Shown: one piece after another, positions 21,561-26,803 of the stretch | Numbering within the stretch: position 1 is the first letter of the stretch | How the letters are laid out: each line of letters starts with the position of its first letter | NCBI GenBank assembly: GCA_963758525.1 | Contig: CAVWVQ010000003.1 | Location: forward strand, 352,001 to 416,000 | Reading direction: 5' to 3' | Source of the DNA: an uncultured Phycisphaerales bacterium | GTDB lineage: Bacteria > Planctomycetota > Phycisphaerae > Tepidisphaerales > Tepidisphaeraceae | Length of the DNA: 64,000 bases | Notes under the pieces: model-generated | The model's database searches: none | Told to the model about the DNA's origin: nothing | Seen by the model: the letters and a program-made list of their open reading frames with translations, nothing else | Made by a program: the position numbers and the translations under genes

Positions 21561-21747
21561 CGGGACAAGCCGGCCGGGCACCGGAGCCGCTTTCTTGCCT
21601 CCTCCCCTCGTACCCGGGGGGAGGAACGAGGTGGGGGGTCGGGAATAAGAAACGCTTCGCTAACGAGTCCGCGCGAGCCGAGCAAGCCCCCACCCCGACC
21701 CTCCCCCGGAGTACCAAGGGAGGGGGAAGAAGTTGCGCCCACAAGGT

Positions 21748-21912
21748 GCTCGCGCACGAATAACTTGAGCAATTTCGAAGCTGCAAGTGACGCAATTGCG
21801 TAGCACGGCCGTCTCGGCTGTGGCCCGAAATCACAGCCGAGACGGCTGTGCTACGGGGGAATCGCCGTCCGCTGACTTCGAAATTATTTGAGCAAGTTAT
21901 TCGTGGGCGGCC
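21748..21912. mobile_element. About 165-bp MITE-like element, copy B
   Basis: Ends GCTCGCGCACGAATAAC / GTTATTCGTGGGCGGCC, central GTAGCAC REP; homologous to 11988-12151. Confidence 0.65.
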
Positions 21913-22770: not shown

Positions 22771-23510
22771 ATGCGCGCCTGGGAAAACGGGATTTGCCGG
22801 GGCGGTTGCTGGTGGGGCAAGACTGCTACCTTCACGTGCGGACGCTGAAACATGACTTCTTTGCCGCCACGGGTTTATATCGTGACGGGCTGGGCCAACA
22901 GGCGGTACTGAAGATGGGCCGGACGGAGGAATTTGCCGGGATTCCCCTCCGCTGGCTCGGACGTTTTCTGCAGCGGCGCGAGCTGCATTTTTATGCCCGA
23001 TTGGCGGACCTTCCCAACGTGCCGGCGGTGCTGGGAACCCTCGGAGAAACCGGGTTCGTCATGGAGTTCGTGCGCGGCCGCCCGTTGGCGGAAGCGTCGA
23101 CCGCTCCGGATGGATTCTTCGACGCGCTGATTGCACTGTTGCGCGAGATGCACCGCCGGGGGATTGCCTATGTTGATACCAACAAGCCTCAGAATATTCT
23201 GCTGGGGGACGACCAGAAGCCGCACATGATCGATTTTCAGATCAGTTGGGATGTCGATCAGCTCGGCAACTGGTGGCTGAATCGCTGGCTGCTCCGCCAT
23301 CTCCAGGCGGATGACATCTATCACGTCACGAAACACAAACGGCGGCTGCGCCCCGATGAGCTGACCGATGCAGAGCGCGACCATTTGTCCCGCAAGAGCG
23401 CGTTCATCCGCGCCCATCGCTTTCTCACCCGGCCGTACTTTCTGTTGCGCCGCAGATTGTTCAAACGGCTGCGTGACACCGGCCGGCTCCTTCCGGAGGG
23501 CAGCAAATGA
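22771..23510 (+). CDS. Protein-kinase-like (RIO/Kdo-type) phosphotransferase; probable 1-nt indel just after the ATG at 22771
   Basis: VLK lysine, MEFVRG hinge, HRRGIAYVDTNKPQNIL catalytic loop and IDFQ. Confidence 0.75.
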
Positions 23511-24088
23511 GACGAGCGTGGCGGTTCAGCGATCTTCTTATGCTGCTGACCATCGGGACCTGCGGCTGCGCCGGGCACGCGACGCCCGTCGGCTCCGATC
23601 CTGCGCCCTTTCCGCAGTCGCTGCCCGCTGCCGCAACCGACGATGGGAATGCCGTCGAGACCGAGGCCGGCGCGTGGAAGGCCATCGCCGGGGTGCTCCG
23701 CCCAGGAACGCTGCACGATGGCATCTACACGGTCGTCATTCCGCGGGATGATCTGGATGTCACCGTCGAAGGGATGGTTGTCCCCACGGCGGCAGGCATC
23801 GAGTCGCGGTTCAACTTTTATCATTGCAGTTGCGGGAAAACGAGCGTGCTGGGCGAATTCGTAGTCACCGATTACGAAGCCGACGATGTCATCGGCACGC
23901 TGCTCGACAAGCAGTTCACGGTTGCGTCGCTGGCTCCGTTTCTTCTGCACGAACGCCCCCGATTGCTGTCGATTCATTTTCACGGAGAGGGCAAGAGCGG
24001 CGACATCGCGGCCGTCTTGAAGCAGGCGCTTAGCTATACCGGCAAGCAGCGGGACGCGCCGGCCACGAACATCGGTCAGCCCAGATGA
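23507..24088 (+). CDS. DUF1259 (LppY/LpqO-like) lipoprotein
   Basis: Signal with lipobox-like CGC; IPRDDLDV..G, GEFVV..E and LLHERPRLLSIHFHG; start overlaps the upstream stop (ATGA). Confidence 0.7.
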   Translation: MRRAWRFSDLLMLLTIGTCGCAGHATPVGSDPAPFPQSLPAAATDDGNAVETEAGAWKAIAGVLRPGTLHDGIYTVVIPRDDLDVTVEGMVVPTAAGIESRFNFYHCSCGKTSVLGEFVVTDYEADDVIGTLLDKQFTVASLAPFLLHERPRLLSIHFHGEGKSGDIAAVLKQALSYTGKQRDAPATNIGQPR

Positions 24089-24132
24089 ATGGCGGAGCAG
24101 TTTTCGCGGCGTGCGCAGATTTCCGGCCGATG

Positions 24133-24181
24133 GACGATCAACGACGATCAACATTGACGATCAACATCGACGATCAACATT
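24133..24181. repeat. Tandem GACGATCAAC(ATT/ATC) repeat, four copies
   Basis: Copies start at 24133, 24143, 24156 and 24169. Confidence 0.8.
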
Positions 24182-24290
24182 GATCGGGGATCTGCAGCGA
24201 AAGGTCCGCGGTTTTTCGTGTCAGCGACGCGCGTGAAATTTTTCGCTTTTTTGGATTTGATTTTTATGGACGATGGCGTATGATGACCTC

Positions 24291-24530
24291 GCACACACAC
24301 CGCTGCCGACGACTGCCAGAGGGTGAGACGATCAAAAATAAGCCATGAAGGCTCCGTCGGCGAATAGCTGTCGGAGTTCTTTTTGTCGGGGGTATTCCCC
24401 GAAGAAGGTTCCCCCCCTCCTTCTTCAACCCCCGACATTTTTCTTCACTCTCAACCGCCCGGCCTCCCCTCCGGGCGAACCCCCAAAGTTGAGAGCCTCA
24501 GCCGCGGATCCCCCCGTCCGCGGCTTCTTT
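24291..24530 (+). ncRNA. Candidate small regulatory RNA with multiple C-rich-loop hairpins
   Basis: TTGATT-N16-TATGAT promoter-like motif upstream (24257-24284), four stem-loops, the last followed by TCTTT; lies between convergent genes. Confidence 0.5.
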
Positions 24531-24683
24531 ATGCGCACTGCCCGGGATGAAATTCGGAGCACCACGATTCCGGCGCGCGAGACAAGACCCGAAGGGGGAA
24601 GCAGCGCCCAACAATGCTCCACCCCCGGAGGGGGTGGCTTTCAGGGGCTTCTAAAGCCACCCCCTCCGGGGGTGGAATTCGCT

Positions 24684-26541
24684 CTACTTGTTCAAATCCG
24701 CGCCGGGTTGCGCGGGTTGATCTGATTTGGGCAACTGCCAGTACTCCTGCATCAGGTGAATTGCGGGGTCCGTGGGGATCGACCGCTTGGCGGCCTGCTG
24801 AAGGTCGGTTGCAGCGGTTTGCGCGTCGCCGGTGTTGTAGGCCACGTACGCCAGCAGGAACCAGGGGCGGCTTTCCTTGGGGTTCTTGTCGGCCAACTCC
24901 TTGAGATCCTTCCGGACGAAGTCCAGGCGGCCGGGGCTGAGCATCGAACCCAGGTCGAGCTGCGCCATGAGCACGGTCGCATCGGCGGCGATGGCACGGC
25001 GAATGCCAGCCTCCGCGGCGGCATAGTAGCCGGCGGCCAGGGTGGCATTGGCACGACCCAAAGCGATCATCTGATTATTTGGAGCGACAATCATCGCTCC
25101 ATCGAACTGCTGGATCGCGGCCTTGAACTTATCATTTTTCAGCGATTCTTCCGCCTTGACGAGCAAGTCGTGCAGGCCTTTCGCCTTGGGAGAAGTGACC
25201 GTGCCGGCGATGCTGCTGATTTTCACCGGTGCGGGGGTCTCCGCGCCGGGAACCGCGCTTGGGCCGGCGCCAGGCGTTGCGCCCGGGGTGCCGGGGCGCC
25301 TGGCGTTCCGGGCGTAGCGCCTGGCGTTCCGGGGGTTGCTCCGGGGGCTCCCGGAGTTTGCGTGCCGGGGGGCTTGATCGCCGTGCTGGCGCGCCTCACA
25401 TTTGGCGTGGTCGATTGAACGTTGAACTGCTTCAACTGCTGCTGCATGGCGGCGTATTGCGCCTGTAGGAGGATGGAGAAACCAGTTGTATTCCCTTCGG
25501 CGCTTCGCCGAAGCCTCCCAGTGCCGAATTTCCCACAGCGTCACTCATCCGGCCGGAAGACGGGCCGTTGATGGGCGAGTTCAGCGGCATTTGCAGCGGC
25601 GAGCCGCTCAGACCCGCGCCATTTTTCCCGACACCTCCAAAGCCTGAGTTCAATGGGTTGCCGCTGGGGGAGTTTAGCGGACCGTTGCCATTGCCATTCG
25701 AGTTGTCGGAGTTGACGTTGCTGTTGCCGTTGAGGTTTCCGTTCAGTTGATTCGGATTGGGGGTGGCCGACTGCGAAGACTGCAACTGCTGTTGCAGCGT
25801 GTTCACCTGATTCTGATCGAGCGAACTGGGAGCCAGTTGGCCCGGCGTGGGGTTGTTGAGATAACTGTTCAAGGCGTCGGCGCTGCCGGCACCCGACAGC
25901 TTGAGTCCGTAGAGGGGCGACGCGGACAGCGTTGATTGAATGTTTGGGGCTGAGGAATCCAATCCTCCGGGCAACTCGAGGAGCGAACTGTTGGTTCCAC
26001 CGGGAATACCGAGAATATTGGTCGTGCCCAACCGAACTCCGGCAAGCTCAGTCGAACTCGCGACAGACGCGTACGGATTGTTTGGGGTAAGACTGGTGCC
26101 GACCGCAGCGCCGGTGCTCCCGAGAAGCACCGTCCCGGTCGGGGGAGCGACGCCACGCGAACTGCCAAAAAACTGTCTGGGGGCGGTGAGGCTGTAATTG
26201 GGCGAATTAGCAGTGGGCACCCCCGACGAACCTGCCGTGAATTGATCTACCCCTGAACCCGGCAGAATTCCGCGAAACGCCACCGGGTCGAACTCCCGCA
26301 ATCTTCCTGTAAGCCCCTTCCCGCCGGTAACGTTGCCGTAGACGATGTCGTTGCTGGTTACCTGGGACGAGCCGCTGCGTCCGGGCCCGTTGTATCCGCC
26401 GCTGCCGACGCCGTTGTTGGCATCCAAAGCATGCCCGTCATTGCTGGTGGCGTATTGCGCGTAAACCGAGTGTGACGCGAGCACCGGCGCGATCGCCAAA
26501 GCCGCCGAAGTCAACCATCGCCGATATGTCTTTGCGCGCAT
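24684..26541 (-). CDS. Secreted low-complexity (N/S/G/P-rich) protein with C-terminal TPR-like helices; at least two indels (near 25470 and 25290)
   Basis: Signal peptide MRAKTY..SVYA, PG(A/T)TPG repeats and TPR-like KAEESLKNDKFKAAIQQF..WFLLAYVAYNTGD. Confidence 0.75.
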
Positions 26542-26803
26542 GCTCGCACCTTCTTCTTGTTGAAGCCCCTGCCCTATTCTACCCTCGAAAAACCACACGT
26601 ACACCGTAATTTCTGACGCGCCGGGCGGCGAAAAGTTCCAAATCGACCGGCACTCGGCCCCTGCGTCCGATTATACCGCACAGGACATCGGCTGTTCGCG
26701 TTCGGAAGCGGTGCAGAATTTCTGCACAAACACGTCAACGCCGGCAACTGCACCCTACTACTGCTAGGGGTACACGCATCATCCTATCTCTCGGAGAGAC
26801 CTC

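Follow-up and report, generated by a model that had tools for sequence, protein, structure and literature searches.

The element at positions 24257-24536 of the window (the whole 64,000-nucleotide stretch of DNA analysed, i.e., G000:C3:352001-416000, where G000 is the source genome) is one member of an undescribed, conserved, modular, multi-copy hairpin family. This is a real, lineage-wide family of structured RNAs, with conserved structure, + strand polarity, a promoter motif, and terminators. Our best overall explanation, which we regard as evenly poised between right and wrong, is that the promoter would drive a small RNA whose long form is gated by an ANTAR protein and whose C-rich loops pair with G-rich targets without Hfq.

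The element lies in a 595-bp intergenic gap (24089-24683) flanked by converging genes, a DUF1529 gene on the left (23507-24088, + strand) and a TPR-like gene on the right (24684-25544, - strand). The initial annotation had described a ~600-bp gap between convergent genes, a TTGATT-N16-TATGAT promoter motif, and four stem-loops with C-rich sequence in the last three loops and in two bulges, and all of these were recovered where it had placed them. The sigma70-type motif (24257-24284, + strand; -35 TTGATT, 16 nt, -10 TATGAT; predicted start ~24290-24291) is the sole promoter-like site within 24050-24750 (shuffle mean 0.2). From 24290 to 24535 the + strand folds at -101.8 kcal/mol (z = -6.36, 0/200 shuffles as good), and the opposite strand of the region gives z = -4.18. 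Three + strand features open this fold: the P1 hairpin (24298-24325), whose loop C-GACGAC is a predicted first ANTAR site; an alternative P2 hairpin, AGCC-AUGAA-GGCU (24341-24353), a predicted antiterminator that has 24350-24353 in common with the terminator; and an internal intrinsic-terminator-like hairpin with a U5 tract (24350-24384), the predicted end of a ~93-nt leader RNA. The earlier list of stem-loops was thus correct in position but had overlooked P1, P2, and with them an ANTAR-type leader, as well as the terminator-like nature (hairpin plus U5) of its first hairpin.

Downstream on the same strand, the family core H3 (24384-24437) consists of a 9-bp stem, a C-rich internal loop (24393-24400, UAUUCCCC), an 8-bp stem, and a UUCCCCCCCU loop (24409-24418). 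It is followed by H4 (24448-24495), a variable accessory module with a second C-rich bulge (AACCCCCAAA, 24478-24487) and the loop CCUCCCCU (24463-24470), the complement of GGAGG, and by the terminator hairpin H5 (24500-24536), with a UCCCCCCG loop (24509-24516) carrying C6, a U-tract, and the GCGC tail of the lineage, for a predicted 3' end at ~24533. In this copy the H5 U-tract is a weak UCUUUAU, against U5-U8 in most relatives; terminator-like hairpins with C-rich loops are rare in G000 (7/436). Terminator hairpins of G000 often end in a U-tract plus TGCGC, with a hairpin of at least 7 bp at 29/168 such tracts, and this ending may be a terminator signature of the lineage. Elsewhere around the element, GACGATCAAC occurs four times in tandem over a short tract ahead of the promoter (24133-24178), and a strong ~60-bp palindrome lies 3' of the RNA element (24613-24680) and recurs once, with 91% identity, on contig C5. 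The TPR-like gene is split over two frames (24684-26604, - strand) and is one long frame in relatives; the split is probably a sequencing frameshift, as in other genes of the window.

By BLAST, the element was found in 20/24 same-family genomes and, weakly, in 1/16 others. A covariance model of the core hairpin (R1, built from 33 copies) matched 106/121 genomes of the order, all of one family of soil and freshwater, Tepidisphaeraceae, with 1-10 matches each. In a class sample the model matched 11/16 family genomes and gave 2 weak matches among 104 genomes of other families, and in a phylum sample it matched 0/140 other Planctomycetota. An exact pattern search of a species collection yielded 88 loci, every one confirmed by the H3 model; 75/80 labelled loci carry the labels Tepidisphaeraceae, Tepidisphaerales, Phycisphaerae/-ales, Humisphaera, Fontivita, or Planctomycetota, and the remaining 5/80 bear other taxon labels yet are full family members, being probably mislabelled or mis-binned. 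Most family genomes are incomplete assemblies, and the unpublished genome G004 enters the 121-genome tallies, the pattern count, the set of 21 proteins, and the tree described below, and supplies one of the three cases in which a leader stands beside a decayed H3; no conclusion rests on it. Rfam returned only two tRNAs from the window at gathering score and nothing relevant to the element at E <= 10, annotated phage and plasmid collections held no match to it, and searches of open-access listings and abstract openings found no description of this family.

Within the family, the C-run is exactly 7 in 101/113 H3 loops, and the two C-tracts of H3 keep a fixed 8-bp spacing. Covariation affects 11/17 H3 pairs, which change on both sides (0/500 shuffles as high; slid controls 2-4 pairs), a count that is not a probability because kin are not independent. 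Modules are also lost separately: some loci (L214, L215, L205, L020) keep the leader and H4/H5 with H3 decayed, or H4/H5 alone, and therefore the H3-based family counts are lower bounds. At the main locus, the neighbour on the upstream side is a nuoC-like gene (a name we assigned from sequence) in 9 of the first 33 loci, and the TPR gene stands opposite in 7.

We consider it highly improbable that the locus is a terminator cluster or DNA repeat between convergent genes, devoid of RNA function. It does hold several hairpins followed by U-tracts, and G000 does contain an abundant C/G-rich palindromic repeat, but there are only five H3 copies in the 6.5 Mb of G000, each with its own same-strand promoter motif, the loop and bulge letters are invariant with a G-U bias on one strand, and the flanking genes are unrelated and in both orientations. 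The abundant repeat, centred on GAGTAC, has ~95-137 copies by exact motifs, mostly intergenic (e.g., at ~21600-21750). A multicopy repeat and a conserved ORF were among the outcomes that the initial annotation had said would count against its proposal, and neither applies, the element being no REP-like repeat and no conserved ORF; of the checks it had suggested, Rfam, homologs, covariation, and paralogues in the genome gave, respectively, no match, 20/24 same-family genomes, 11/17 pairs, and five copies.

The polarity of the family points to an RNA gene on the + strand. In a strict promoter test on 113 unique copies (7 loci unanchored, 29 without a profile match, 2 cut short), a same-strand sigma70 promoter motif stood upstream of 89/113 copies versus 4/113 on the opposite strand, where shuffled sequence scored 9.7% and random windows 1.6%. 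H3 paired columns hold 14 G-U cells versus 5 A-C cells, and no reading frame is conserved across the family. A conserved ORF was rejected, the AUG of the P2 loop being missing from about half of the leaders and, counted against H3, spread over the three reading frames (10, 5, and 4). Other candidates were rejected as well: a minus-strand CsrB-like RNA with GGA loops by the promoter, the U-tract, and the G-U polarity; a cis leader of the next gene, which converges at the main locus and differs elsewhere; and an antitoxin opposite a small toxin gene, the minus-strand AGGAGG having no start codon after it. The C-loop element is very probably transcribed, and the earlier proposal of an undescribed planctomycete element stands, in that it is a structured, non-coding + strand element of Tepidisphaeraceae with its own promoter motif and paralogues, undescribed in Rfam.

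Long copies share one order, 5' to 3': P1, P2, a terminator with a U5-U7 tract, and H3 directly after it. The family consensus of the P1 loop is C-GA-N-G-R-N and P2 takes the form AGCC-ANGAN-GGCU, its 3' arm being the 5' arm of the internal terminator, so that the P2 form and the terminator are mutually exclusive; in the 24257-24536 copy the P2 form costs 2.7 kcal/mol. In nearly all of 33 leaders the common arm can pair with either partner, in P2 or in the terminator; CGA-N-G occurs upstream in 32/33 (loose match), and compensatory P2 changes are seen at L008, L009, L011, and L022; because these leaders were picked for having P2, only the compensatory changes and P1 are informative in them. 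Both stems have at least 3 bp and both loops read N-A-N-G with G at position 4 (counting the closing C for pentaloop P2); P2 is mostly an ANGAN pentaloop with position 1 usually not A, P1 begins with G, and the canonical AAUGAA hexaloop occurs in G316 only.

This arrangement resembles the dual-hairpin ANTAR antiterminators (E. faecalis EutV/eut, AmiR/amiE, NasR/nasF) in having two small purine-loop hairpins, the second overlapping the 5' arm of the terminator, and further in the AGC/GCUY stem of P2, the loop G4 in the eut register, and a REC-ANTAR regulator with a HisKA_2 kinase. It differs from them in position 1 (C or G), loops of 5-7 nt, a Gln in place of the M172 plug, and in what lies downstream of the leader, a non-coding RNA and no operon. 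The eut leader consensus, AGCAANGRRGCUY, overlaps the 5' part of its terminator (excerpts of PMC3369931), and the leader P2 here reads AGC-CANGARG-GCUY against it. The P1-P2 linker is 15 nt in the 24257-24536 copy and ~5-12 nt, by eye, in most relatives; in eut it is 5-12 nt and a 14-nt linker cut induction (excerpts of PMC3369931), and 2-25 nt was accepted for actinobacterial ANTAR-leader matches (excerpts of PMC8164766). Because its loops are not A1 hexaloops, the leader falls outside the full ANTAR-leader definition, and it is predicted to work like one all the same. A pattern that left the loop free matched 31 times, with A-N-G loops in 25 cases, and the 23 genomes concerned include 22 that are ANTAR+. 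A genome-wide ANTAR-leader scan of G000 returned 17 matches versus 24-26 for control loops and is uninformative because the control loops gave more; no second convincing ANTAR target was found in G000.

The genome encodes a single REC-ANTAR protein (C3:3519259-3519894), whose best solved relatives are 1s8n (a putative antiterminator, E 7e-41) and 6wsh (E 1e-27). ANTAR is single-copy in 49/121 family genomes and also occurs in 13/104 class genomes of families without the C-loop RNA. A HisKA_2 kinase is present in 45/122 genomes, 43 of those ANTAR+, and by our reading adjoins the ANTAR gene in 28; GAF domains occur in 10/10 ANTAR-neighbouring kinases examined, and beside the ANTAR gene of G000 no GAF kinase was found, only a PAS-HWE-type kinase. 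The ANTAR gene sits directly upstream of glyA in G000 and 5 other genomes among 24 loci checked (7 glyA-linked ANTAR loci, 2 of them duplicated; L286, L185, L187, L193, L194, and L288 are listed), a possible hint at the signal. In excerpts of the EutV-RNA structure report (PMC8934654), G4 is the only base-specific contact, A1 contacts nothing, and Met172 may set loop size. All 21/21 family ANTAR proteins keep the residues matching the EutV G4 contacts R142, K149, and E160 and have His for Y164 and Gln for M172, with Q also standing for R168 here, and on these alignments the change from Met172 to Gln is suggestive of a fit to relaxed loops.

Presence of the leader follows presence of the regulator. 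The RNA locus was viewed in 78/107 genomes with a match, 18 with short copies only were set aside, and 60 were scored. Intact P2 was found in 27/34 ANTAR+ versus 3/26 ANTAR- genomes, P1 in a hairpin loop in 22/34 versus 5/26, a U-tract of at least 5 in 25/34 versus 6/26 (e.g., G297 among the latter), and all three together in 18/34 versus 1/26; P2 was missing as scored in 7/34 ANTAR+ genomes. Comparisons within genera agree: ANTAR- G320 has lost G4 from both loops while G011 and G319 retain it, the P2 stem is broken in G297 and G298 and retained in G042, and the leader is degraded in G005 and G294 and intact in G295. In G012, the one genome matched by the loop-free pattern that is not ANTAR+, ANTAR was not found, and the contig breaks off 115 nt past the kinase, on the side on which the ANTAR gene would lie. 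On an RpoB tree (FastTree) of 57 genomes, ANTAR state changes 13 times; four genomes were brought into the test by the pattern search, and six had no RpoB. The 8 independent pairs, as scored, have P2 changing in the same direction in 6.2, in the opposite direction in 0.2, and not differing in 1.6 (median p 0.031, range 0.008-0.375), and after curation (G098, G282, G294, and G316 rescored by eye, G012 omitted) the figures are 7.0, 0.0, and 1.0 (median p 0.016). The independent-pair test is modest in strength; from this co-evolution, ANTAR antitermination probably gates the long form. P2 and mostly the U-tract too decay in ANTAR-losing lineages, and therefore the RNA would be constitutive there.

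Two other readings of the leader bear on the same data. It might be a switch whose ligand is another protein, e.g., one of the three CsrA-family homologues encoded by G000, with the ANTAR link reflecting shared loss; its loops resemble ANGGA less one G and are, in P2, mostly pentaloops instead of hexaloops. Against this, P2 tracks ANTAR over independent pairs and the AGC/GCUY stem with its place on the terminator matches the eut consensus, and we consider a CsrA-type ligand very unlikely. Quite unlikely, too, is that the ~93-nt terminated leader is itself the functional product, a sponge for the ANTAR protein, with the C-rich part made separately by leak or by processing at the U-rich linker. 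Precedents exist in EutX/Rli55, a non-coding RNA that carries ANTAR sites, as the present RNA is predicted to, and sequesters EutV (excerpts of PMC5821096), and in the binding of EutV to single hexaloops (excerpts of PMC8934654); the lack of a second convincing ANTAR target in G000 fits a sponge, as does a leader kept while H3 decays in G333, G325, and G004. However, the EutX site is not linked to a terminator (excerpts of PMC5821096), whereas here the arm common to P2 and terminator fits both in nearly all 33 copies; the U-tract decays where ANTAR is missing; and H4 and H5 are retained downstream where H3 decays. The logic would also be reversed: in EutX/Rli55 a B12 riboswitch gates an ANTAR sponge, and under ANTAR gating, the reading that we prefer, the ANTAR sites would be the gate and a C-loop RNA the output.

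The C-rich loops are the candidate effector part, three C-loop hairpins being present in the 24257-24536 copy and one in its short siblings. Known C-loop RNAs offer partial parallels. The 6C RNA of Actinobacteria pairs its C-loops with G-rich sites, e.g., AGGGGGG, with no need for Hfq or ProQ (excerpts of PMC6486639), and the present family shares with it loops of at least 6 C, a high-GC lineage, and no Hfq or ProQ (neither was found in G000, which is 91% complete). It differs from 6C in having no match to the Rfam model of 6C even at E <= 10, in its core, a bulged hairpin to which a second C-tract belongs, in the number of C-hairpins (one to three) and of copies in each genome (1-10), and in its ANTAR-type leader; by analogy, 6C RNA is nonetheless the nearest working model. 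Modular adjacent hairpins, C-rich loops, and sibling copies recall the cuckoo/CcsR RNAs, which bind Hfq and, in excerpts of PMC4615179, are reported from Alphaproteobacteria only. That identity was rejected by the loop motif, as UUCCCCCCCU, CCUCCCCU, and UCCCCCCG differ from each other and none is CCUCCUCCC, and a single-hairpin form exists here. RNAIII and RsaE of S. aureus and LhrC of Listeria, the last of them multi-copy, carry UCCC-type motifs in loops and linkers, but the present family has another structure, belongs to another phylum, and lacks an Rfam match.

As to targets, the initial annotation had read the C-rich loops as anti-Shine-Dalgarno sequences, and this holds for one loop of the element and not for its universal one. 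By rough gene calls, G000 uses Shine-Dalgarno sites (a GGAG peak of 140 over ~14, with a canonical 16S tail), and GGAGG, the complement of the H4 loop, stands at -20..-5 of 145/2975 genes versus 32-64 elsewhere, so that the CCUCC loop of H4 fits an enriched site. The complement of the universal H3 C7U loop, GGGGGA, is not enriched near start codons (18 versus 13-19). Target prediction over 2975 start regions gave 32 at -8 kcal/mol or better, a count obtained without a shuffled-RNA control; these predictions are weak, and the best of them have no function in common. Six longer motifs gave no match of at least 6 letters to 16S rRNA, nor any in the stretch after 16S. The initial annotation had taken a second candidate (1490-1727) with the same CCUCC logic as a hint at a small regulatory family; this candidate does represent a second conserved family, but has no sequence similarity to the 24257-24536 element. 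Its 3' part (1660-1731, + strand) is single-stranded UUUCCUCCUCC followed by a terminator with a AACCCUCC loop, is found in 20/24 family genomes with up to 3 copies and in 2/2 genomes of one other family, has no Rfam match at gathering score, and is a better anti-Shine-Dalgarno candidate than the element treated here.

These target results leave room for a further reading, in which transcription and ANTAR gating are as proposed and the C-rich hairpins act instead by sequestering a C-binding protein (a protein of the lineage, or Rho), the multi-copy and prophage copies raising the dose. The C-run of exactly 7 in 101/113 copies and the two C-tracts at fixed 8-bp spacing would suit a protein site equally, matching G-runs are not enriched at start codons, the predicted targets are incoherent, and copies occur in prophage structural regions. 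Still, no candidate protein was identified, C-loop RNAs of other phyla act by pairing, the H4 loop is a good GGAGG complement, and Rho prefers long unstructured RNA, which counts against that ligand. We therefore treat titration as unlikely, and lean, by analogy with 6C RNA, towards C-tract pairing with G-rich mRNA as the function.

The family also has a short form, a bare ~60-nt promoter-hairpin-U-tract unit without the leader. A -10 box stands 30-40 nt before the loop in 28/112 copies, and therefore a start at the hairpin foot and a 56-67-nt RNA are predicted for these. One short sibling of G000 (L021/L042, C3:4815586-4815658) has a phage-type AAA ATPase gene (phrog_8638) on one side and an unknown gene on the other, and is probably part of a mobile element. 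Two short siblings, L093 and L094, share a contig at a distance of 724 bp and have a promoter motif each. Seven viral contigs carry the H3 hairpin, whereas 16 of 23 looser viral-pattern matches are chance; of the viral copies, two directly follow a tape-measure-like gene and one precedes a portal gene. No ANTAR gene was found in five viral records, all partial, and no enrichment of short copies in mobile elements was shown, the flanks of 19 host copies being mixed. Candidate viral RNAs with Phycisphaerae hosts have been reported (excerpts of PMC10690425), and the viral short form may be among the unnamed ones; the C-rich loop sequence is absent from those supplements of PMC10690425 that were searched.

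Combining these parts, we propose that transcription would start at the promoter 24257-24284 and that the polymerase would by default halt at 24384, giving a ~93-nt RNA. A phosphorylated REC-ANTAR dimer would bind P1 and then P2, and P2 would claim the bottom four pairs of the terminator stem, allowing read-through to a ~243-nt RNA. Its exposed C-tracts would nucleate base-pairing to G-rich stretches of mRNAs and repress translation, in the manner of 6C RNA; the H4 CCUCC loop could reach ordinary GGAGG sites, and the H3 C7U loop would need rarer G-run sites. The ~60-nt paralogues without a leader, including the prophage-borne ones, would be ANTAR-independent siblings. More tentatively, and in our judgement somewhat short of an even chance, the whole may amount to a two-component system with a non-coding RNA output through ANTAR, in which the RNA code has shifted (A1 dropped, loop size relaxed, and the Met plug replaced by Gln), the 60-nt hairpin has become a self-contained mobile regulator copied up to ten times in hosts, and prophages carrying it in structural regions would bypass the host switch.

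Together, these data describe a near-universal RNA family of one whole order with a named candidate regulator, in a phylum, Planctomycetota, where post-transcriptional control is nearly unexplored. Fontivita pretiosa B-254 (L077), which is cultured and fully sequenced, has the ANTAR gene together with leader and core. That the RNA loop and the protein plug have changed together offers a direct test of how ANTAR proteins read loops, and the prophage copies raise the testable question of whether phages use host regulatory RNAs. In the papers we consulted, ANTAR targets are mRNA leaders or a sponge, and the text of a 2025 review of antiterminators (excerpts of PMC12591593) contains neither "sRNA" nor "Planctomyc". 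If true, the proposed mechanism would make Hfq-independent C-loop RNAs known from another phylum, and an ANTAR leader that gates an sRNA would link sensor and sRNA in a new way.
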